A DNA stretch of 64,000 nt from positions 41,150 to 105,149 of the forward strand of contig JBBTSV010000003.1 in assembly GCA_038064595.1 (NCBI GenBank), in the 5' to 3' direction. The number at the start of each line of letters is the position of its first letter. Position 1 is the first letter of the stretch. Below are positions 10,046 through 34,720 of the stretch, in pieces. The position numbers and the translations under genes were made by a program. Source of the DNA: Patescibacteria group bacterium. Its GTDB lineage: Bacteria > Patescibacteriota > Minisyncoccia > Phycocordibacterales > Phycocordibacteraceae. Below the pieces are notes generated by a model. That model was not told where the DNA came from and ran no database searches. It saw only the letters and a program-made list of their open reading frames with translations.

Positions 10046-11022
10046 TAGCTAAACGCATCTACCGTCCTGCCCTTGCTATCGAGCAGCTTCACCACCTCGT
10101 GGGTGGAGCGCCAGAGGGGGGCGGTGCGTCCGAGGTATACCCGCCATGTATTCCCTCTGAAGTCCACATCGCTACGGTGGGTCTCGACACAGCCATTGTA
10201 GTTCAGATATTTGATTGCAAAACTCTGACAGGCGCCAGAAATAGTGGTCGGGGGAGAAAGGACGACCTGGCAACGCGGGAGCGTATTGATGTAGTCAATG
10301 CAGTTTGGATCGCGGATATACCCACCCCCATAAAACGTGGTGAGCTCGGTAGACGGCAGGGGGCAGTTGTACGGGAGGCTTGGGGAGAATTTTTGGAACG
10401 TAGCATAGTACCCAATACACTTGTTTTCTCGGAAGGAGGCGCCGATTGGCGAATACCCTGAAATAATGATCGCACGTTCTCCGGGGGAGAGTACAATATC
10501 TTGAATCGCGTTCACTACTCCTGAAGAGGGGATGTCCGTCCCCTGGGGGATCGGTGCAGACTTACCGGTCGCCTCACTCAAGAGAGTCCATCCCGTTATA
10601 TCAACCGGTACCCCAGCGCCGGCCCCAACTGAAATCCAGGTAGACTCGTTTCGAGGATCTACAGAACCAGCGCCGGAGATCCCGTGGTTTATTGATACAA
10701 CACCTCGATAAGGAGACACTTCACCAAACGGAATACCACCAGTGAGGATCGGTACGGGCGCAGAACCACTCCCACTTCCCCCACTTCCCCCACTTCCTCC
10801 ACCAGAGTAGTTTCCGATACCCCCGCCTGAAGAGATATACGATCCACCCCCGACCGCTAAGGGTGCGCGCGGGAACCGGAGGTAGTTACCGCCACCAAGC
10901 TCCTCAGGGAGTGCGAGACGAGGTCCGGTGAAGGAAAGAGAGTTGAAAGGGCCGCCCGTGGCTGCCCAGATAAGGAAGATGAATACGAACACACCGATGA
11001 AAAACCATGCGTCATGCTGCAT
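10042..11022 (-). CDS. membrane-anchored Gly/Ser-rich hypothetical protein
   Basis: N-terminal TM helix, then a GGGSGGSGGSGSGS low-complexity linker and a Cys-containing C-terminal domain. Confidence 0.4.
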   Translation of the reverse strand: MQHDAWFFIGVFVFIFLIWAATGGPFNSLSFTGPRLALPEELGGGNYLRFPRAPLAVGGGSYISSGGGIGNYSGGGSGGSGGSGSGSAPVPILTGGIPFGEVSPYRGVVSINHGISGAGSVDPRNESTWISVGAGAGVPVDITGWTLLSEATGKSAPIPQGTDIPSSGVVNAIQDIVLSPGERAIIISGYSPIGASFRENKCIGYYATFQKFSPSLPYNCPLPSTELTTFYGGGYIRDPNCIDYINTLPRCQVVLSPPTTISGACQSFAIKYLNYNGCVETHRSDVDFRGNTWRVYLGRTAPLWRSTHEVVKLLDSKGRTVDAFSY

Positions 11023-14761: not shown

Positions 14762-15862
14762 ATGGCATCTGTTTTGAGTGAGCGACTCCGTATCGCTTTT
14801 GCGCCGCCGCGCTATCTCGCACTTCCCTATGCGGGCATCGACCTCTCTGCAAGCGGCGTAAAGGCTGTCCGCCTCCACCGGAGACCAGAAGGACTTGTTC
14901 TCGCGGGTTATACAGCAGAAACGCGATTCGCCCCCGGGGCTTTTGTAGATGGCGAGATCATTGACCGTGCTGCGGTAGTTGAAGCGCTAGGAACCGCAGC
15001 ACACATGACAGGAATTACTGCTACCAACGCAGCACTTCCGGAGTCAAAATCATATTTGTTTGAGACGGTCGTACCTGGGGCACGCCGATCAGAGTGGCGC
15101 GTTGCAGTCGAACAGCAGCTCGATGAGCTTGTCCCCTTGCCCCCAACCGAAGCGGCGTTTGATATTATCGGAGTACGAACAGTAGAGCAGGGCGGGATGC
15201 AGATCGCCGGTGTCGGATTTGCGCGTCGTATTGTAGACAACACCATCGCAGCATTTGATGAGGCGGGAGTAGAAGTTCGGGCTCTTGAAGGGGAGCCGTT
15301 TGCAATGGCGCGCGCACTCCTCCCCACGGGAGATACTTCCACCACACTCATCATCGATATTGGGAAGACGACCACCAAGCTCACTATTGTGGTGAATCGA
15401 ATCCCGCGATATGCCGCCACGATTGGCATCGGAGGTCACGCACTCACGCTTGCGGTACAGAAACACTTTGGAGTGACTGAAACTGAAGCACGAAAAGTAA
15501 AGGCGGATCGGGGCATTGTCCCCTCGCCCGGGAATGAAGATTATCTTGCAGCGATGCTTTCAACCGTCTCTGCTATTCGTGACGAGATCGCTCGCCGCTT
15601 GCAGTTTTGGCAAGATCACGCAACCACTGAAGGGAAGCACGAACCGGTTATCCAAGCGATTATTGCGGGAGGGAATGGGTCGGTGCGGGGTCTCCCTGAA
15701 TACCTCGAAGGGTCACTTCATGTACCCGTGATGACCGGTGACGTATTCACCAACCTCGCATCACGCAATGACTGGATCCCTGAACTCGATTACCGCGAGT
15801 CGCTCGCCTACGCCACAGCCATCGGCCTCGCGCTCCGTGACGCTACCAATACCTATGAATGA
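14762..15862 (+). CDS. pilM: type IV pilus assembly protein PilM
   Basis: Actin-like ATPase fold pattern and position upstream of pilN/pilO. ATG at 14762 follows a TATACT box. Confidence 0.75.
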   Translation: MASVLSERLRIAFAPPRYLALPYAGIDLSASGVKAVRLHRRPEGLVLAGYTAETRFAPGAFVDGEIIDRAAVVEALGTAAHMTGITATNAALPESKSYLFETVVPGARRSEWRVAVEQQLDELVPLPPTEAAFDIIGVRTVEQGGMQIAGVGFARRIVDNTIAAFDEAGVEVRALEGEPFAMARALLPTGDTSTTLIIDIGKTTTKLTIVVNRIPRYAATIGIGGHALTLAVQKHFGVTETEARKVKADRGIVPSPGNEDYLAAMLSTVSAIRDEIARRLQFWQDHATTEGKHEPVIQAIIAGGNGSVRGLPEYLEGSLHVPVMTGDVFTNLASRNDWIPELDYRESLAYATAIGLALRDATNTYE

Positions 15863-26396: not shown

Positions 26397-28487
26397 TTGC
26401 TCATGAATCGCTCCGAGAGCTATGCCGCCGTTAAGCCCTCTAAACCTAACGATCTTGAGGCTAAACCAGGTATCGTTGACGACCAGGAACAGATTCTTGC
26501 AGGATTTTCTCCCGAAGAGCGAAAGATCATCCGCGAAAGAATGCGTCTCCTCTCGCTCATTCCAAATCACATTGGTAAAGACTTCGAGATGGCAGTCGAG
26601 CTGAATACATCGGGCGAAGGATGGCACTGGAACTTCGCTATCAACCACGTCCGTGTTGACCCGAAAGATCTGCTCGAAAAACCCCTCGACTGGTGCCGCC
26701 AAACAATGGTGCATGAGGGTGGTCATCGACGCGTGTCACGTGTTGATTTCATTCCGAAAGATATTTGGGAACAGCCGGGTTTTTCTTCGATGATGAACGC
26801 GATCGAGGATCCACGCATGGAGAACTTCATTTCTGAAGCGTATCCTCCATATCGCAAGCTCCAGAAGACAGCGTACGAGCACGATCTTGAGTCAGAAAAA
26901 CGCATGAAAGAATCCGCCGATGGAAAGCTTGGGCGACAGCCACGCTTCATGCAAGCTGGATTTGAATATATCAAGCAATGGTTCAAGCAGACCCAAGGTA
27001 AGCCATTCGAGCTCTCCGCAGATTTGCCCGACGACGTACGAGTGGTCGTTAATAAAACTCTCAAGGCAGCCGAGGATTCGTGGCTCCGTTATCCGACCAG
27101 AAACGAGGCTGACAAAAGCGAGGAGGTCATTAAAGCGTATGCGGAAAAATCATACGAAATCAATCGTGATCGAGTGTGGCCAGACTTTAAGAAGCTTGTC
27201 GAACAAGATATTAAGGATCAAGAAATTCCGGAGTTCCTTAAAGACCTTATGCAAGGAAAGGGCGAAGGAAAACCAGAGGCAGGACAAGGAGAAGGACAGA
27301 GTGAAGGCCTTTCGCCACAGGACATCCAAGATATTAAAGATGCAGTTAAAGCGGCACTTGGCGAAAAGGGTGAAGGCAAGCCCATACCTCCTGGCGCGTT
27401 GTCGGAAGAACTTAAACAGAAAATCCAAGCCGCGTTTGACGCGCTCCCCGAGGATAAAAAGCGCGAGATTATGGAAGCGGCACGCGCTGAAATAAAGGAA
27501 TTGGCAGACGAGTTCGCCGCTCAATTTGAGGGTGAATATATTAAAGCCGGAGAACCACAGGGCGAACCAGAATCGGGGACGCTCGAATCCGAAGGTCGTG
27601 CATGGAGCGAGGCGGAGCGAGCGGCTGATGACACGCGACACGAGATGCGGCGGCGCATGGAAGAGTCACTTGGGCGTAGCGAAGGCGATCCATATCGAGA
27701 GGCACTTACAGAAATGGCCTCATACATCGATGCTCTCACTGGTGATCTGCGTGATGTGTTGGTGAAGCGCAAAATGACCACGACGGAGGCAGGGTATCGT
27801 TCAGGAAGGCGCTGGAATATTCGTACCCGCATTAAAGAGCGTATTGCGGATATCCCGCTTATCAAAACCCAGAGTCGAGAACAGCCAGAATCATCTAGCG
27901 AAGAAACCGACTACGCGGTCCTACTTCAAATCGATCTCTCCGGTTCGATGAGCCGTGGTAACAAAATCGAAGAGGCGTTTAAAGCGATTGTGCTATTGAG
28001 CGAAACATTGAACAATCTCAATATCCACTTCGAGATTGATGGCTTCCAAGACCTCCTTCTCGAATTCAAACGTTTCGAGGAACAGCTCGATGAATCGATG
28101 CGGCTTAAACTGAATCAATTGTTGCTTGAAGTTGAAAATGAAAATCCAGATGGACACAATAACGCGGGTGATAACGACGATGGTGCCTGCCTACGAGAAG
28201 CATCACAGCATCTGGCTAACCAAACAGCACGGGAGAAGATTTTGATCGTCCTCTCCGATGGCCAACCCGCCATGGATTCAGGGCGCAAGAGTCAGGGACA
28301 GCTCGATCGAGAACTCAAGGCGGTTATCCGTGAGATTCGTGAGAATACTGACCAAAAACTCATCGGCATAGGCATCAATTCGAGTGCTGTTTCTAGCTAT
28401 TACGAAAACAATCTCCCGAATGTCGATGCGAAAGAGCTTGCCGAAACCCTCGGTGAGTTACTGCGTAGCGTGATTGAACGCAACTGA
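26397..28487 (+). CDS. VWA-domain protein with N-terminal putative zinc-metallopeptidase motif (MoxR partner-type)
   Basis: HExxH (MVHEGGH) near the N-terminus, a long acidic low-complexity middle region, and a C-terminal VWA MIDAS (DLSGSM ... LSDGQP). Confidence 0.7.
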   Translation: MLMNRSESYAAVKPSKPNDLEAKPGIVDDQEQILAGFSPEERKIIRERMRLLSLIPNHIGKDFEMAVELNTSGEGWHWNFAINHVRVDPKDLLEKPLDWCRQTMVHEGGHRRVSRVDFIPKDIWEQPGFSSMMNAIEDPRMENFISEAYPPYRKLQKTAYEHDLESEKRMKESADGKLGRQPRFMQAGFEYIKQWFKQTQGKPFELSADLPDDVRVVVNKTLKAAEDSWLRYPTRNEADKSEEVIKAYAEKSYEINRDRVWPDFKKLVEQDIKDQEIPEFLKDLMQGKGEGKPEAGQGEGQSEGLSPQDIQDIKDAVKAALGEKGEGKPIPPGALSEELKQKIQAAFDALPEDKKREIMEAARAEIKELADEFAAQFEGEYIKAGEPQGEPESGTLESEGRAWSEAERAADDTRHEMRRRMEESLGRSEGDPYREALTEMASYIDALTGDLRDVLVKRKMTTTEAGYRSGRRWNIRTRIKERIADIPLIKTQSREQPESSSEETDYAVLLQIDLSGSMSRGNKIEEAFKAIVLLSETLNNLNIHFEIDGFQDLLLEFKRFEEQLDESMRLKLNQLLLEVENENPDGHNNAGDNDDGACLREASQHLANQTAREKILIVLSDGQPAMDSGRKSQGQLDRELKAVIREIRENTDQKLIGIGINSSAVSSYYENNLPNVDAKELAETLGELLRSVIERN

Positions 28488-28509
28488 CACACCCTGATAT
28501 ACTTCTCTC

Positions 28510-29502
28510 ATGCCCGAAGGCCCTCCCAAAACGGCACCCAAGATACTCGAACAACAGCTCATAGACTTGAGAGAGATTCAGCGCGCACTCGCCGAGGCGA
28601 GAGAGGCCGGGGATGTGGCGGCCGCAGAGGCACTTATGGAGCAGCATCGAGATGCAGTCGAGCCGATGGAAGCCTCAACATCTCCAGGAGAGTCGCCAGA
28701 AGGTGCCACATTAGCAGATGCCGAACGCATCCTCGGCAAAGAATCGATACTTGGTCCCAAAGCTGTGGAGCAGGTGTTCGGAGTCAAACTAGACCGCATA
28801 CCAGCCATCCCGTTTTCACAGCAGGAATTGCAACGCGCCAAAGAGCTCGGTCAACAACTCATTTTCTACACCGACGCTCTTTCACCCACTACGCTAGGAG
28901 AAAAAGTCAAACCACTTACTCTCGCGAATTTGAAACAGAAATTCACAAAAGCCCACGACGACGGCAAAGTTTTCTACGAACAAGATTGGTACAAGAATGA
29001 AGATTTCTTCAAAAAAGAGAAACCGCGCGTTGGTTGGCGACTCACCTCAAAAGATCTACTCCCAGAGTCAACCTCGAAAAACTATCTCGAACAGACCGAT
29101 GTGCTGATCGAGTATTTACAAAAACAAGTCTTCAAGGGAGCAAAACTTCCGAAACCATATGAAGACGCGATCGCAGAGTGGAAGCGTGAACGAGAAAAGA
29201 TCGAGCCACTGGCGACAAGCTCGACAGACACCGAATGGAAATGTGGTTCCCAAATGCTTACCGATCTTGCGATCACTAAGCTCACACGAGAATTACCAAT
29301 CGAAGTCATGTATCGATTTATCCTTAACGATCAGATAAACAAAGATAAACCCCTCCCCTCAGCCTACACATGGACAGCGAGTCGTTCGTCTGGCGGCTAC
29401 CTCGTGCATGTCGGCGGCTTCGGCGACGCGGGTGCGCTTGTGAGCAGGGGCGACCCCGGCGCTCGCCACGACAATCTCGGCGTCTCGTTCTCCCGCAGTT
29501 GA
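28510..29502 (+). CDS. DGR target protein 1 (variable repeat at its C-terminus; paralogous to the C-terminal 265 aa of target 2)
   Basis: The last 41 codons form VR1. Its C-terminal motif ...NLGVSFSRS resembles a CLec-fold DGR variable region. Confidence 0.75.
   Translation: MPEGPPKTAPKILEQQLIDLREIQRALAEAREAGDVAAAEALMEQHRDAVEPMEASTSPGESPEGATLADAERILGKESILGPKAVEQVFGVKLDRIPAIPFSQQELQRAKELGQQLIFYTDALSPTTLGEKVKPLTLANLKQKFTKAHDDGKVFYEQDWYKNEDFFKKEKPRVGWRLTSKDLLPESTSKNYLEQTDVLIEYLQKQVFKGAKLPKPYEDAIAEWKREREKIEPLATSSTDTEWKCGSQMLTDLAITKLTRELPIEVMYRFILNDQINKDKPLPSAYTWTASRSSGGYLVHVGGFGDAGALVSRGDPGARHDNLGVSFSRS
29378..29499 (+). repeat. DGR variable repeat VR1
   Basis: 122-nt alignment to the template repeat gives 19 mismatches, all at template adenines, and 0 of 91 non-A positions differ. 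Confidence 0.9.
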
Positions 29503-29536
29503 TTTTTGAATAGTGAAGAATGAATCTTTGAATCCT

Positions 29537-29559
29537 CTCCGACCCGTTTAGGGTCGGAG
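29537..29559 (+). other. GC-rich hairpin downstream of VR1 (DGR homing-associated stem-loop / terminator)
   Basis: CTCCGACCC-GTTTA-GGGTCGGAG lies 35 nt after VR1. An analogous hairpin follows VR2. Confidence 0.5.
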
Positions 29560-29593
29560 ACTCTCGAAAAATTATTCTGATATACTTCACCAT

Positions 29594-30001
29594 ATGACAC
29601 AAACCTCAGTTGCCCCATCTGCCCTCATAAGCCAATCTATAGGCCTTCCGAATTTGGTCATTGTTGAAAGCTCTAAAACTCTTGAGGGGGCCGAGGCACG
29701 CGTCCGACAAGATCTAGCGGGCTTTATGAAAGCGTCTGACGCCACCTCGGTGCTTGACCACTTAGAGAAAGGCATAAGCGTCCTCTATATAGAACGAGGT
29801 GAGAAGCTCGATCCTCGCGTAGAAACAATTGTGACCACCTATGCGGCTGGTATGGCGAGCTTCGCTTCACCCAGCGGTCTTGTATCTGCCAGCTTCGATC
29901 CGATGCACACAGCCCTCACCATCGTTATTTCCCGTGACGCTCTTGAAAAGAGCTACCCACAGCTTCTCACTTACGCCGGTGCTGTCACTTCTATTTCATA
30001 A
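29594..30001 (+). CDS. hypothetical protein
   Basis: ORF between the two DGR targets with no recognisable motifs. Confidence 0.35.
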   Translation: MTQTSVAPSALISQSIGLPNLVIVESSKTLEGAEARVRQDLAGFMKASDATSVLDHLEKGISVLYIERGEKLDPRVETIVTTYAAGMASFASPSGLVSASFDPMHTALTIVISRDALEKSYPQLLTYAGAVTSIS

Positions 30002-30006
30002 ATCAT

Positions 30007-32073
30007 ATGTCTGAACGCCGACCAACTGCAAAGAGAGAGAAACCAGGACGCGAACCGTTCATCGTAGAGAAGGACGAGTCGGTGTCGTACCTTGGAGTCG
30101 AAGTGCCTAAAGGCGAAGGCGGTCCACTCGTCCCAGGTCGTCAGGAATCAGAAAATTATTTTTATACGGAAGAGGATTACCTGTTGCGCCGAGAGATGGC
30201 GACGTCAATCGCGCTCAATAAACCAATTCTCTTTGAAGGCGGCACCGGCATAGGCAAAACTTCAGCCGTTGCCGCGATGTGTGCCGAGCTCAACCTCAAT
30301 TTCTGCAAGGTGTCCTTCGCGCGCGATATGGCGATTGAGGACGTAATCGGCGGTAAGACTATTGTTAAAGAGGGTGACGCAGAAGTCGTGAAATGGTACG
30401 ACGGCAACTTGATGGTCGCGATTCGCCACGGCGGTATCGCCCTTCTCGACGAATACAACTTTCAAGGCAGCAAAGTCGGCTCGCGTGTGAACCCAGTCAT
30501 TGATGCAATTTTGAACGGGAGAAAAGAAATATCGCTGCCCGAAAATGACAACGAGCGTGTGATGGTGCATCCCAACTTCCGCCTTGTCGCTGCGCAGAAT
30601 CCTCCAGGCACCGAAGAGGGCCAAGAATTTACCGGACGTGAACAGATGTCCGCCGAGACATTCGGACGATGGACGTTTAATAAACTTCCCCTTGAAATGA
30701 GTCGAGACATGCGCGACAAACGTCTCGCAGGCATGATGGGAGAATCTGTTGATATCAAATTGCCTCCTGAAGCCTTCCGCAAGCTCGGCGAGGGCGTTCC
30801 GTTCCACGAACTCAAAGACATTCCTGGAATGACGCATTGGCGTCGTGCTGCCCTCGATGTGCTTGACCAGCTCAAAGCCAAGTCTACCGGTGCAGATCGC
30901 GATATGGCCAAGACACAGCGCCAGCGCCTCTACTTCAACCCGCGCCTTGAGCAAGGACTTCTGAACTACGTCTCTCGCTTCTATCGGGGAGACGTAAACC
31001 AGGTATGGGGCGAAGCATTCGAGCACCTTATCGTCGGCATGTACAAAGATGAGGCTGATCGCCAGGCGGTGCGTGAATTGCTCACGCTAAACGCCTACGA
31101 GCCACAGACCGACACGAAACGCAGGCCACTCGGCGATGCTGAGCGAGCTGAACAAGAAGGGGCAGAAGAAACATGGGCAAAAGTTGCTGAATTTGAAGAC
31201 AAACTTGCTACTAAGATTTCTGCCCTCGAACAGGAGCTTGGCGTTTCATCTGGTGAGAGTAAAGAAATATCGCTTGCCGACGCAGAAAAGATTCTTGGAA
31301 AGGAGTCCGTGCTCGGAGCGAAAGATGTGGAACAAGTGTTCGGAGTCAAACTAGATCGCATACCAGCCATCCCATTTTCACAGCAGGAATTGCAACGCGC
31401 TAAAGAACTCGGTCAGCAACTCATTCTCCAAGTTGATTCAATGACTCACAAGGGGGGACTGATGTCTCGTGAGAAGAGTGCTCCGCTCACGCTTGAGAAT
31501 CTGAAACAGAAATTCACAAAGTCCCACGACGATGGCAAAGTTTTCTACGAACAAGATTGGTACAAGAATGAAGATTTCTTCAAAAAAGAGAAGCCGCGCA
31601 CCGGCTGGAGGCTCACATCAAAAGACCTCGTTCCTGACTCCACGAGTAAGAGCTATCTCGAGCAAACTGATGTACTCGTCGAGCATTTGGAGAAACAGAT
31701 TTTCAAAGGTGTCGAGGTACCAAAACAATATAAGGATGCCATTGCCGAATTCAAGCGCAAGAGAGCAGAGATTGAACCGCTCGCAAAAAGTGGAACAGAT
31801 GCGGAATGGAAAAAAGGTTCCCAGATGCTCGCTGATCTCGCGATTACCAAACTTGCCCGCGAACTGCCGGTCGAGGCCATGTACCGCCTCATTTTGAACG
31901 ACCAAACTCGAAAGGATAAACCGCTCCCCTTAACCTACACATGGACAGCGTGTCGTGCGTCTGGCGGCAGCCTCGTGGATGTCGGCTGCTTCGGCGACGC
32001 GGGTGCGGCTGTGGACGGGGGCAGCCCCGACGTTCGCTACGACCGTCTCGGCGTCTCGTTCTCCCGCAGTTGA
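30007..32073 (+). CDS. MoxR-like AAA+ ATPase fused to a DGR-diversified C-terminal domain (DGR target 2)
   Basis: Walker A EGGTGIGKTS and Walker B ALLDEYN of the AAA_5/MoxR type. The C-terminal ~265 aa are paralogous to target 1 and end in VR2. Confidence 0.8.
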   Translation: MSERRPTAKREKPGREPFIVEKDESVSYLGVEVPKGEGGPLVPGRQESENYFYTEEDYLLRREMATSIALNKPILFEGGTGIGKTSAVAAMCAELNLNFCKVSFARDMAIEDVIGGKTIVKEGDAEVVKWYDGNLMVAIRHGGIALLDEYNFQGSKVGSRVNPVIDAILNGRKEISLPENDNERVMVHPNFRLVAAQNPPGTEEGQEFTGREQMSAETFGRWTFNKLPLEMSRDMRDKRLAGMMGESVDIKLPPEAFRKLGEGVPFHELKDIPGMTHWRRAALDVLDQLKAKSTGADRDMAKTQRQRLYFNPRLEQGLLNYVSRFYRGDVNQVWGEAFEHLIVGMYKDEADRQAVRELLTLNAYEPQTDTKRRPLGDAERAEQEGAEETWAKVAEFEDKLATKISALEQELGVSSGESKEISLADAEKILGKESVLGAKDVEQVFGVKLDRIPAIPFSQQELQRAKELGQQLILQVDSMTHKGGLMSREKSAPLTLENLKQKFTKSHDDGKVFYEQDWYKNEDFFKKEKPRTGWRLTSKDLVPDSTSKSYLEQTDVLVEHLEKQIFKGVEVPKQYKDAIAEFKRKRAEIEPLAKSGTDAEWKKGSQMLADLAITKLARELPVEAMYRLILNDQTRKDKPLPLTYTWTACRASGGSLVDVGCFGDAGAAVDGGSPDVRYDRLGVSFSRS
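31949..32070 (+). repeat. DGR variable repeat VR2
   Basis: 22 mismatches to the template repeat, all at template adenines. VR2 also differs from VR1. Confidence 0.9.
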
Positions 32074-32108
32074 TTTTTGAATACCGAATAATGAAGTCTT
32101 GAGTCCAT

Positions 32109-32129
32109 GCTGACCCGTTCAGGGTCAGC
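32109..32129 (+). other. hairpin downstream of VR2
   Basis: GCTGACCC-GTTC-AGGGTCAGC, followed by a T-run. Confidence 0.5.
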
Positions 32130-32333
32130 ATCCGCGCAAATTTTTTGCTAGTATGGACATACGGCTAATGAAGCGTCATTTACGGATGTCGCTCGCCGAA
32201 AAACACTGCTTGTCCGCCATTAGCGCAAACGGTTGAAGTAATGGGACAGTGCGCACATCCTATAACCCGAAACAGCTCACGCCTTTCGCGCATGCGAAAC
32301 GCTGGGGCGAAGCCACGGACGATGGCGGACAAA

Positions 32334-32455
32334 ACGAGTCGTACGTCTGACGGCAACCTCGTGAATGTCGGCAACTTCGACGACACGGGTGCGAATGTGA
32401 ACAGGAACAACCCCGACAATCGCAACGACAATCTCGGCGTCTCGTTCTCCCGAAG
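32334..32455 (+). repeat. DGR template repeat (TR)
   Basis: 31 adenines, AAC/AAT-rich (7 AAC). It is the invariant copy relative to VR1 and VR2 and sits in a degenerate remnant of the target C-terminus, upstream of the RT. Confidence 0.9.
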
Positions 32456-32459
32456 TGTT

Positions 32460-32487
32460 TCCAACACCACTCAGATGAGTGGTGTTG
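32460..32487 (+). other. 13-bp-stem hairpin immediately after TR
   Basis: CCAACACCACTCA-GAT-GAGTGGTGTTGG followed by ATTTTT. It may be a DGR spacer RNA structure or a terminator. Confidence 0.4.
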
Positions 32488-32851
32488 GATTTTTCGTATA
32501 CTTGATCCATCCGCCGACCATGCTACCGATCTCGATTATTTTCTCAGAGAGCGAGGCGAATCCGGCATCGTTGATGCTCCCCGTTTTATACGCAAGGCGC
32601 AGATGGGTCGTGAGCATCTTGAGTGTTACGTCCGCTTTATTAAGTATCAAAAGCCGAGACGCTCCCTGCTTGCTTTGTGCAAGGTAGAGAAGCTCGATGA
32701 TTTCGAGTATGGTATTTTCTATTCTCACACCGAGCGTGTACCGTTCCGGTTTTTTGAATTTCAAGACTCGCTTGTGCGCAGCAAGGTACAATTGGCTCAC
32801 TTTATGGAAAACGATCGGCTCGGTGTACGTCTCGACAGTGGATTGGGTCAT
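32471..32851 (-). CDS. avd: Avd-like accessory variability determinant (four-helix-bundle protein)
   Basis: 126 aa. The C-terminus IIEIGSMVGGWIKYTKN and the helix pattern match Bordetella bAvd (IAEVGRILGSWIARVNRK). It is encoded antisense between TR and RT. Confidence 0.65.
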   Translation of the reverse strand: MTQSTVETYTEPIVFHKVSQLYLAAHKRVLKFKKPERYTLGVRIENTILEIIELLYLAQSKQGASRLLILNKADVTLKMLTTHLRLAYKTGSINDAGFASLSEKIIEIGSMVGGWIKYTKNPTPLI

Positions 32852-33889
32852 AAGGATTTATTTAAGCTCATAATCTCCAAGGAGAACATTTTCGCCGCGT
32901 GGCGGGAGTTCCAGAAGTGGAAGATGAGCAAACAGGACGTGCTCGCATTTTCAGAACATTTTGAAGAGCATCTCTTGCAATTGCACTACGACCTTGCAAA
33001 TGGGCGATACCGACATGGACCCTATATACGCTTCCTCATTCAGGATCCGAAACAGCGTAGTATCGCCAAAGCAAGCGTCCGCGATCGCGTCCTGCATCAC
33101 GCCATCTGTCGCGTGATCACGCCGAGCTTTGATAATGCATTTGTATTTGATACGTACTCGAGCCGCAAGACCAAGGGCGTCCATCGAGCGATCGAACGGC
33201 TCGTACGTTTGGCGTGGCGACTATCCCGAAACAACACACAGACCGTCTGGATGCTTAAGTGCGATATACGAAAGTTTTTCGAGAGTGTTGGCCATGACAG
33301 ATTGCTTGAGTTATGTACGAGACGCATTGATGACAGTCGTGTTATGGCCCTACTCAAGAATATTCTCGGTAGTTTTGAAGCGGAACCTAGAACTAGAAAG
33401 AGTATCCCTCTCGGCAACCTCACTTCACAGCTCTTTGCTAACATCTATCTCGACCGATTTGATCAGTATGTGAAGCGCGAATTGCGTTTCAAGAATTATC
33501 TCCGCTATACCGACGACTTCATACTGCTCTCCACTGATCGCGAAGAACTTGAACGCACCTTACCGCTCATACGGGATTTTCTCTTACGTGACCTCAATCT
33601 CGATTTGCACCCAACAAAAGTCACATTTCGGAAGTGGCATCAAGGCGTCGACTTTCTTGGCTATGTGCATTTTCCGCATCACCGAGTTATCCGTACGAAG
33701 ACAAAGAAACGTATGATTCGAAAACTGCGCAATCGAAAAGAAACTTTTGAAGCTAGAGACATCGACGAAGATGAGTTGCGCCAAACGGTAGCATCGTATC
33801 TCGGTGTTCTCTCGCACTCTCAAAACAGAGGATTGGCGAGACGCATTCGTCGTGATTTTCTCCCTAAGGGTAAGGCTCTTACCGAGTAA
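32804..33889 (+). CDS. DGR reverse transcriptase
   Basis: Bordetella Brt-like motifs: KENIFAAWREF, GPYIRFLIQDPKQRSI, the DGR-specific LGNLTSQLFANIY and YTDDFILL. Start set at the ATG at 32804; the upstream part of the ORF is unsupported. Confidence 0.9.
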   Translation: MENDRLGVRLDSGLGHKDLFKLIISKENIFAAWREFQKWKMSKQDVLAFSEHFEEHLLQLHYDLANGRYRHGPYIRFLIQDPKQRSIAKASVRDRVLHHAICRVITPSFDNAFVFDTYSSRKTKGVHRAIERLVRLAWRLSRNNTQTVWMLKCDIRKFFESVGHDRLLELCTRRIDDSRVMALLKNILGSFEAEPRTRKSIPLGNLTSQLFANIYLDRFDQYVKRELRFKNYLRYTDDFILLSTDREELERTLPLIRDFLLRDLNLDLHPTKVTFRKWHQGVDFLGYVHFPHHRVIRTKTKKRMIRKLRNRKETFEARDIDEDELRQTVASYLGVLSHSQNRGLARRIRRDFLPKGKALTE

Positions 33890-33971
33890 CTTATCAGCGC
33901 GTTGCTTGGGGCATCTTTTCAAGATTCGTGGTATAAAAATCTGGTGCGCCCGCCTGCGGCTAGGCGGACAT

Positions 33972-34045
33972 GGTGGTCGTAGCTCAATTGGTAGAGCATC
34001 TGCTTGTGGAGCAGAAGGTTGTGGGATCGTGACCCATCGACCACC
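33972..34045 (+). tRNA. tRNA-His (anticodon GTG) with G-1
   Basis: G-1 plus acceptor GTGGTCG/CGACCAC, anticodon loop TTGTGGA, C73. Confidence 0.75.
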
Positions 34046-34072
34046 CAAAAAAGATTGTGCTACCATCTCCAC

Positions 34073-34720
34073 ATGAAAACTCTCTTTGGCGGCATTGCCC
34101 TTATCATAGTCCTCGGGATCGGCGGTTTTATTTACCGTAATGCGCTTGAGCACCCATCTCGGACGATCGCGTGCCCGCTCGACGCACAACTGTGCCCCGA
34201 CGGCACGGCGGTGACGCGCACCGGCCTCTCCTGTACCTTCCCCGCATGCCCGCCACCCAACGTAACGCTCGCCGACCTCGGTATATCCTTTGCGCTCCCT
34301 GCTACACTCCAAGATGCTCCGCTCGCCGACTCAAGCGCGCAGTTCAATTATGACCTGGTGACGAACGCGTCATCGACGGCGTCGGGGAGTGTCTATATCT
34401 ACCGGTACCCGATCGCCGCTTCTTCGACCGCGCTCGCGACGATACAACAGACAGCGATAACGACTCCATCGGGGCTCCCGGCGCGTGCTACGGCGCTCAC
34501 CTCAACGGCGCTCGGGAACTATCGCTTTACGGTGGTCGGGATCGAGCGCAACGAGGGCGTCCTCATCACCGCCTACTACCTCGCCCGAGCCACCGACGTG
34601 CTACGTTTTGACGCAGTTGATACCGATGTTCGTAATTGGACGGATCCCCAGCTCGACCCGACGACGCTCCCGGCGCACCAGGCGCTCCGTGCACTCCTCT
34701 CGACACTCCAAGGACAGTAG
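34073..34720 (+). CDS. membrane-anchored hypothetical protein
   Basis: N-terminal TM helix and a Cys-rich segment. Internal ATG at 34073. Confidence 0.4.
   Translation: MKTLFGGIALIIVLGIGGFIYRNALEHPSRTIACPLDAQLCPDGTAVTRTGLSCTFPACPPPNVTLADLGISFALPATLQDAPLADSSAQFNYDLVTNASSTASGSVYIYRYPIAASSTALATIQQTAITTPSGLPARATALTSTALGNYRFTVVGIERNEGVLITAYYLARATDVLRFDAVDTDVRNWTDPQLDPTTLPAHQALRALLSTLQGQ

Follow-up and report, generated by a model that had tools for sequence, protein, structure and literature searches.

A reverse-strand avd gene meeting the reverse transcriptase gene head to head in a diversity-generating retroelement of a Patescibacteria group bacterium

Two described systems stand closest to the locus reported here, a diversity-generating retroelement (DGR) in a 64,000-nucleotide stretch of contig JBBTSV010000003.1 (assembly GCA_038064595.1; the whole stretch is called the window hereafter) from a Patescibacteria group bacterium. 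Its accessory gene avd (accessory variability determinant) runs on the minus strand between the template repeat (TR) and the gene for the reverse transcriptase (RT). The first system is the DGR of the Bordetella phage BPP-1 (Avd structure 4DWL; RT-Avd-RNA complex 8UB7), where avd precedes the TR on the same strand (avd-TR-brt) and the TR is followed by a spacer RNA of 140 nt. Its Avd is a homopentameric barrel, needed for cDNA synthesis, that binds the RT and an RNA stem-loop located right after the TR, contacted by all five protomers; for priming and RT binding, about 140 nt of RNA 3' of the TR are essential, and post-TR stem-loops were predicted in 207 of 278 Avd-containing DGRs, including those of the candidate phyla radiation (CPR) (Handa et al., bioRxiv 10.1101/2023.10.23.563531). 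The second is architecture B3, written TR-(avd)-RT with parentheses for the reverse strand, found in 90% of CPR DGRs (Wu et al. 2018, Nucleic Acids Res 46:11, PMC5758913). That paper makes no mention of an abutment or overlap of start codons, of a hairpin and T-run over the avd stop codon after the TR, of promoters or of homopolymer tracts, and the words promoter, homopolymer and phase are absent from it.

The window cassette agrees with B3 and shows no essential difference from it: the TR (32335-32456, plus strand) is followed by avd (32471-32851, minus strand, an open reading frame (ORF) of 126 aa with an ATG start) and by the RT gene (32804-33889, plus strand), with no other accessory gene. 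Order, orientation and CPR/Patescibacteria host are the same, more than one transcription unit is required in both, and the AAA/midasin-like ATPase domain reported for one class of CPR variable repeats (VRs) has its counterpart in a window target. We consider it very probable that the ORF encodes the Avd subunit of a chromosomal CPR DGR with this layout (targets, TR, reverse avd, RT), which would be expressed from at least three transcription units. The initial annotation had placed avd antisense between TR and RT, and the coordinates bear this out. It had added that canonical DGRs keep avd co-oriented with TR and RT, which is true of the Bordetella phage prototype and not of CPR elements, where a reverse avd is the norm. 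Its conclusion that the transcriptional organization must be unusual did not survive the comparison with other CPR DGRs that it had itself proposed: the same layout is common, both in the published share of B3 and in our own census.

For this census we gathered 113 loci besides the window from a one-genome-per-species scan with an Avd alignment, a metagenome scan and exact-protein look-ups, using peptide patterns of the window Avd subfamily. The metagenome scan with a single Avd protein gave only four close relatives, and more relatives were fetched by the exact-protein look-ups. Both genes were detected in 107 loci, and in 97 of them RT and avd are head to head, that is, divergent and touching, while nine have avd pointing to RT and one has RT pointing to avd. 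The recurrence of the same pair in the same geometry in 96 other loci is far beyond chance. The head-to-head placement is the standard, already published layout for CPR DGRs and not an oddity. We also found it in three Chlamydiae-labelled loci (L022, L025 and L032), with start codons overlapping as CATG; L025 is OY969795.1, a complete Parachlamydiaceae chromosome of 2.67 Mb. Given these loci, the B3-type layout is not fully exclusive to CPR.

The minus-strand ORF is a genuine DGR Avd protein. Its translation, with the C-terminal end ...SEKIIEIGSMVGGWIKYTKNPTPLI (also IIEIGSMVGGWIKYTKNPTPLI), is identical to an NCBI protein from a Patescibacteria metagenome-assembled genome. The Pfam profile PF22296 (bAvd) matches it with 54.1 bits (gathering score 40; E=2.5e-14) over residues 16-118 of 126 and profile positions 5-106 of 107, above the curated cut-off and nearly along the whole domain. 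The top match is NCBIfam NF033474 DivGenRetAVD, with 63.6 bits over profile positions 3-104 of 104 and an equivalog cut-off of 80. The profile named in the initial annotation, PF05635 of the 23S rRNA intervening sequence (IVS) proteins, stayed under its own cut-off (18.6 versus 33.8 bits). An AlphaFold2 model built with 21 homologues (pLDDT 89.7) predicts helices at residues 11-29, 40-60, 63-89 and 95-120 after a disordered N-terminal tail (residues 1-8), the constrained core starting at about residue 9-14. Since profile searches of the PDB by sequence gave weak matches (2rld, E=0.06; 4dwl, E=0.27), a comparison of folds was needed. Foldseek returned as best PDB matches members of the Avd/23S-IVS pentamer family (2gsc, 2rld, 4dwl and 8ub7), among them the Avd chains of the DGR ribonucleoprotein 8ub7. 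The protomer is a four-helix bundle superposable on the 4dwl chains of Bordetella phage Avd (TM 0.85-0.89, rmsd 1.6-2.2 A), although the window Avd is only 18-20% identical to bAvd. The 23S rRNA IVS proteins (PF05635; 2GSC, 2RLD) have the same fold and belong to the same pentamer-forming family; the window protein differs from them in its sub-threshold PF05635 score and in its context, which is a DGR and not an rRNA intervening sequence. The Avd homologue announced by the initial annotation is thus confirmed by the bAvd profile and by the fold.

Around avd the DGR is complete. A 122-nt direct repeat (family D2) is found on the plus strand at 32335-32456, at 29378-29499 (VR1) near the end of target gene 1 and at 31949-32070 (VR2) near the end of target gene 2. 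Target gene 1 (28510-29502, plus strand) encodes 330 aa and is a paralogue of the C-terminal half of target 2; target gene 2 (30007-32073, plus strand) encodes 688 aa with an N-terminal AAA_5 ATPase domain. The 19 mismatches between TR and VR1 and the 22 between TR and VR2 are located without exception at TR adenines (41/41), and we take the copy at 32335-32456 as the template because every difference from both other copies falls on its adenines. Each VR stops 3 nt short of the stop codon of its target gene, and the last 24 nt of the repeat, which resemble an initiation of mutagenic homology element, are invariant but for one fixed TR/VR difference at 32453. Reverse transcriptases of the DGR clade carry the motifs [LIV]GxxxSQ and YxDD. 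The window RT (361 aa from ATG 32804) matches RVT_1 with 80.7 bits and contains LGNLTSQ and YTDD, which indicates that it is probably of DGR type. In the type of RT and in the adenine-specific differences between TR and VRs the cassette is like BPP-1, while it differs in having the antisense avd in the position of the spacer: the avd stop codon (32471-32473) is 15 nt away from the TR end, and the RT gene begins within the 5' end of avd.

With the RT starting at ATG 32804, which we regard as probable, the two ORFs overlap head to head by 48 nt or 16 codons (32804-32851, both strands), and the earlier statement that about 16 codons of avd overlap the RT start holds for this codon. The Met1 codon of each ORF is antisense to the His16 codon of the other. 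In a DNA-level alignment of eleven close relatives the avd ATG (CAT on the plus strand) is kept in 10/11 and the ATG equivalent to 32804 in all those aligned; the conservation of the latter is confounded, because the conserved avd His16 codon occupies these three positions on the opposite strand. In the three relatives without indels (L109, L106 and L108) this ATG is the only canonical in-frame RT start. Variable sites between 32700 and 32803 are at avd third positions (33/34), and those between 32852 and 32960 at RT third positions (33/36), the RT-type pattern being present only from 32852 on. Inside the overlap, 32804-32827 keeps an avd-like coding pattern, in which seven of the eight avd third positions, corresponding to RT first positions, vary, and 32828-32848 is rich in indels among the relatives, several of which carry a poly-G/C tract. 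In this sense, the overlap is best read as real but formal, crossing only an unconstrained N-terminal extension of the RT and the disordered tail of Avd. In the wider family the nearest in-frame ATGs of avd and RT are mostly -2 to +14 nt apart (CATG, CATATG, CATnnnATG); overlaps of 40-80 nt are a minority class, and the window's clade stands at -48 nt. A maximal RT ORF from ATG 32603 (428 aa) was discarded: in L109, L106 and L113 stop codons interrupt its frame shortly before the 32804-equivalent ATG, and 32700-32803 evolves purely as avd coding sequence.

A later start of the RT, which the initial annotation had offered as an alternative, seems to us rather unlikely. Translation would begin at TTG 32843, paired with avd ATG 32851, so that the genes would share 9 nt as in the usual abutting layout and 32804-32842 would be RT leader or promoter and not coding sequence. 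The wider family supports a start in this area, as its RTs begin some 7 codons ahead of the conserved core, a position corresponding to about 32840 in the window. Also, homologue alignments begin only at RT residues 16-20, and the avd-type variability of 32804-32827 is not that of an RT coding region. However, TTG is a rare start codon and is not conserved in close relatives, being ATT in L109, GTC in L106 and GGC in L108, the same three relatives that offer no canonical in-frame start other than the 32804-equivalent ATG.

The putative transcript that carries the TR has distinctive features of its own. We aligned the region upstream of the TR in ten loci, the window and nine relatives. A promoter-like motif, TTGCTAGTAT (TTGCTAnnnT; 32145-32154, plus strand), stands about 7 nt 5' of the conserved RNA start and is kept as TTGCTATACT, TTGCTATAGT or TTGCTATAAT in 9/10 loci, with the variants TTGATACACT in L106 and GTGCTACACT in L108; the same motif also occurs 6-7 nt before the ATG of the genes at 11022(-), 42231 and 48231. 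It is followed by a non-coding domain of about 170 nt (32160-32334, plus strand) with strong nucleotide conservation across the ten loci, the putative 5' domain of the TR RNA. A long-range helix is predicted in it between GUCCGCCAU and AUGGCGGAC; L112 has GCCCGUCGC/GCGACGGGC instead, amounting to four compensatory pairs, L108 shows G-U wobbles, and the fold z-score is -3.06. No Rfam family matched 32050-32900. Altogether, 32145-32334 has the appearance of a structured 5' portion of the DGR RNA. Here again the window departs from BPP-1, as its strongly conserved non-coding RNA is upstream of the TR and not downstream.

Three nucleotides past the TR a hairpin with a 13-bp stem and a tetraloop begins (32460-32489), followed by TTTTT (the whole at 32460-32494, plus strand), and the avd stop codon is located inside it on the opposite strand. 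A single DNA segment thus holds both the stem-loop or terminator of the TR transcript and the last avd codons. Close relatives keep the hairpin and T-run with unrelated stems (CCCCGCC/GGCGGGG, CCCCGCGCGGTCG/..., CCCCGTGAGA/...), and the T5 run is conserved in every one of them. A comparable hairpin and T-run across the avd stop codon was found in 32/90 head-to-head loci versus 3.1% of control windows, an enrichment of about 11-fold. Because Handa et al. place the Avd-bound stem-loop directly after the TR, the window hairpin is most likely, by analogy, the equivalent Avd-binding element; the BPP-1 stem-loop is tetraloop-capped as well. The window hairpin also looks like an intrinsic terminator, and the U-tract after it is a difference from BPP-1. 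Synonymous sites of avd vary freely past about 32527 (20/20 per 60-nt bin). This absence of added constraint argues that the functional RNA would not reach far into antisense avd, and beyond about 32527 synonymous-site variation shows no trace of a spacer RNA, conserved in sequence, on the strand opposite to avd.

We also looked at 32438-32449, in the invariant 3' end of the TR, and 32547-32558, antisense to the avd codons FASLSE. The two segments are complementary over 12 bp (10 Watson-Crick and two G-U pairs), in a way reminiscent of the TR:spacer duplex that primes the Bordetella phage DGR. As a primer strand this duplex was rejected: it is not significant versus shuffles (-21.9 versus -15.3 +/- 3.5 kcal/mol), it is lost in L113, L107 and L081, and the synonymous sites there show no constraint.

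By these data the cassette would be read as at least three transcription units: the TR RNA, avd and RT. The TR RNA, of about 335 nt, would start from the TTGCTAnnnT motif, cover the 5' domain and the TR, and stop at the hairpin and U-tract or just past them; avd transcription would converge toward this hairpin, and RT transcription would diverge from avd. With avd and RT start codons back to back, either the mRNAs lack leaders or each gene must have its promoter and any 5' leader within the first codons of the other. If Avd acts as its pentameric counterpart does in the Bordetella phage, it would attach to the RT and to the post-TR stem-loop and would position the RNA for adenine-mutagenic cDNA synthesis, after which the mutagenized cDNA would replace VR1 or VR2.

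It is unlikely, in our view, that the RT lacks a transcript of its own and is translated from TR transcripts that read through antisense avd, with the hairpin acting as Avd-binding element and not as terminator. TR and RT are co-oriented, the Bordetella phage RNA needs some 140 nt 3' of the TR, and the 12-bp complementarity just described also speaks for this reading. On the other side, the T5 run is kept in all close relatives, avd lacks added synonymous constraint past about 32527, the duplex is neither significant nor kept in three relatives, and the RT ORF would lie about 310 nt downstream on the transcript without a Shine-Dalgarno motif.

Promoters and translation signals for avd and RT were sought in several ways. 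A scan of 31900-34100 for the sigma-70 consensus gave a single weak site, on the minus strand within RT, where shuffled sequences gave more; a positional search for -10 hexamers upstream of 37 well-defined avd/RT starts gave no sharp peak; Shine-Dalgarno motifs are almost absent upstream of the avd and RT starts in the 37 loci; and a strict leaderless rule (TAnnnT 5-8 nt before the start) fits no avd or RT start candidate in the window. We found a hexamer TACAAT (32787-32792, plus strand) 11 nt 5' of RT ATG 32804, within avd codons Q20-L21-Y22, and TAYAAT is kept at the same spacing in 10/11 aligned sequences, L113 having TATACT; it might be the -10 box of an RT mRNA that is almost leaderless, an inference only. 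In the window as a whole, a TAnnnT hexamer stands 5-8 nt before the first ATG of 19/77 long ORFs versus 4.9% of all ATG triplets (p=4e-9), and a loose Shine-Dalgarno 4-mer precedes only 12/49. Examples with TATACT, TACAAT or TATAAT 6-7 nt before the ATG and no Shine-Dalgarno are at 14762, 17372, 28510, 42231, 48231, 11022(-) and 39651(-). This suggests that leaderless mRNAs may be widespread in this Patescibacteria genome. The initial annotation had treated a missing promoter or ribosome-binding site as a possible refutation of the avd ORF; because Shine-Dalgarno motifs are rare here and leaderless-type promoters common, such an absence is uninformative.

Some points weigh against our reading of the cassette as a B3 element with at least three transcription units. 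No convincing -10/-35 promoter for avd came out of the sigma-70 scan, the positional search or the leaderless rule. The TACAAT candidate is confounded by the conserved avd QLY codons, and its spacing of 11 nt is larger than the genome-typical 5-8 nt. If about 140 nt of RNA 3' of the TR are needed in this cassette as well, transcription has to pass the hairpin and continue into antisense avd, which would make the terminator reading wrong or only partial. The share of about 90% head-to-head loci in the census belongs to the Avd subfamily whose peptide patterns retrieved them, not to all DGRs. Finally, the DivGenRetAVD score is below the equivalog cut-off, which we read as CPR divergence from the model seed and not as evidence against homology.

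As regards the start of avd itself, initiation at the internal GTG 32800 (residue 18) would abolish the overlap and, with RT ATG 32804, leave 3 nt between the genes (CAC TTT ATG), but we judge it quite improbable. Many database homologues are annotated from that position (P0008, P0010, P0011, P0013 and P0014, with products of 107-111 aa), the equivalent codon of L109 is an ATG located 3 nt from the RT ATG, and the geometry would fit the common CATnnnATG class; database entries of window-type Avd span from 83 to 168 aa. However, the position is no start codon in L107/P0009 (ACG), L083 (GTA) or P0016 (Ile), residues 9-17 (TEPI[IV]FHK) are conserved as protein with variation mostly at avd third positions, the Pfam and NCBIfam profile alignments already start at residues 14-16, and predicted helix 1 begins at residue 11. 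The ATG at 32851 is preferred to it. The weakest alternative, a generic 23S-rRNA-IVS-type four-helix bundle or a chance antisense ORF unrelated to the retroelement, could draw on the non-DGR structures 2gsc and 2rld among the top fold matches and on the weak PDB matches by sequence (E 0.06-0.27), and is already effectively refuted by the bAvd profile above its cut-off with the IVS profile below, by the union of avd with a DGR RT and TR in 97 loci and by the clear coding-type substitution pattern, with variable sites at avd third codon positions in the alignment of relatives.

The junction of the two genes has a further peculiarity in the relatives. A poly-C run of 8-13 nt, always C on the avd strand, occurs at the avd/RT junction in 39/97 head-to-head loci, 1-15 codons past the avd ATG, with about 20 nt left to the conserved core. 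The density of such runs is 5.6 per kb at the junction versus 0.005 per kb in the flanks (three runs in 615 kb). Tract-bearing relatives, at the position equivalent to 32828-32848, include L083, L084, L113, L110, L002-L005, L017 and L068, besides the multi-sample sets L115-L118 and L119-L122; the window has no run of at least 8 nt, its sequence at 32830-32844 being GACAGTGGATTGGGT. Flank identity exceeds 90% in just two pairs of loci with the tract, so the tract is present in many independent lineages. An in-frame avd ATG upstream of the core is found in 15/39 tract loci versus 52/58 tract-free loci, and an in-frame RT ATG in 19/39 versus 55/58 (Fisher p ~1e-7 in each case). The length of the tract differs between contigs otherwise 99.6-100% identical (C9, C12 and C7AC2 in one lineage, C10 and C11 in another), while four contigs of one tract-free lineage have identical junctions. 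In the window's clade the antisense pairing of Met1 and His16 means that the two ATGs come into frame or leave it jointly when a tract lies in the overlap; because each Met1 codon is antisense to the His16 codon of the other gene, one slippage event would turn Avd and RT on or off at once.

Tentatively, and with somewhat more doubt than confidence, we propose that the junction is a phase-variable regulatory switch for the whole retroelement, and that the tract-free 48-nt overlap of the window is a 'locked-on' allele. Some of the contigs compared have a coverage of 2-6x, homopolymer length is error-prone, and all consensus states observed are 'off' for avd; alternative starts or transcriptional slippage could rescue expression. 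Contingency loci with homopolymer tracts include tracts shared by divergent genes, as in hifA/hifB of Haemophilus influenzae. Like these, the relatives have a C8-C13 tract at a divergent-gene junction, with length variable between near-identical contigs. Unlike hifA/hifB, the window is tract-free, the tract in its clade is inside both ORFs and not in a promoter spacer, and the variation in the relatives is seen between contigs. Literature searches for DGR or Avd together with homopolymer tracts or phase variation found no paper that connects them.

Other features accompany the cassette. GC-rich inverted repeats at 29523-29573 and 32108-32132, 25-35 nt 3' of each VR, may be target-recognition hairpin or cruciform elements as in other DGRs, or terminators of the target genes. 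The targets belong to a block conserved in the window (26403-32073) and in L106 and L108, made of a VWA/CobT_C-like protein, a 135-aa ORF (29594-30001) and the AAA_5 ATPase with its C-terminal variable domain; the second target of the window (28510-29502) is an extra truncated paralogue. A tRNA-His gene (33973-34046) is located 84 nt past the RT stop codon, and in relative L110 a large serine recombinase gene (378-1703) adjoins RT. These neighbours hint that some related cassettes are in or beside mobile DNA. In the close relative L107 gene calling leaves the RT region with nothing but an ORF of 109 aa (1942-2271), with avd, TR and target genes still there, and this may be a decaying element.

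Taken alone, the window cassette adds one example to a published layout and changes little. The overlap of avd and RT is a property of dispensable N-terminal tails that depends on the start codons chosen, which matters for the annotation of CPR DGR genes. The conserved 5' domain before the TR, with only a hairpin after it, suggests that the DGR RNA of B3 elements is apparently reorganized, and this bears on how far the priming model of the Bordetella phage can be generalized. Furthermore, if the phase switch at the avd/RT junction is true, one stochastic mutational mechanism would be gating another, and this could explain why many cellular DGRs look inactive in metagenomes.

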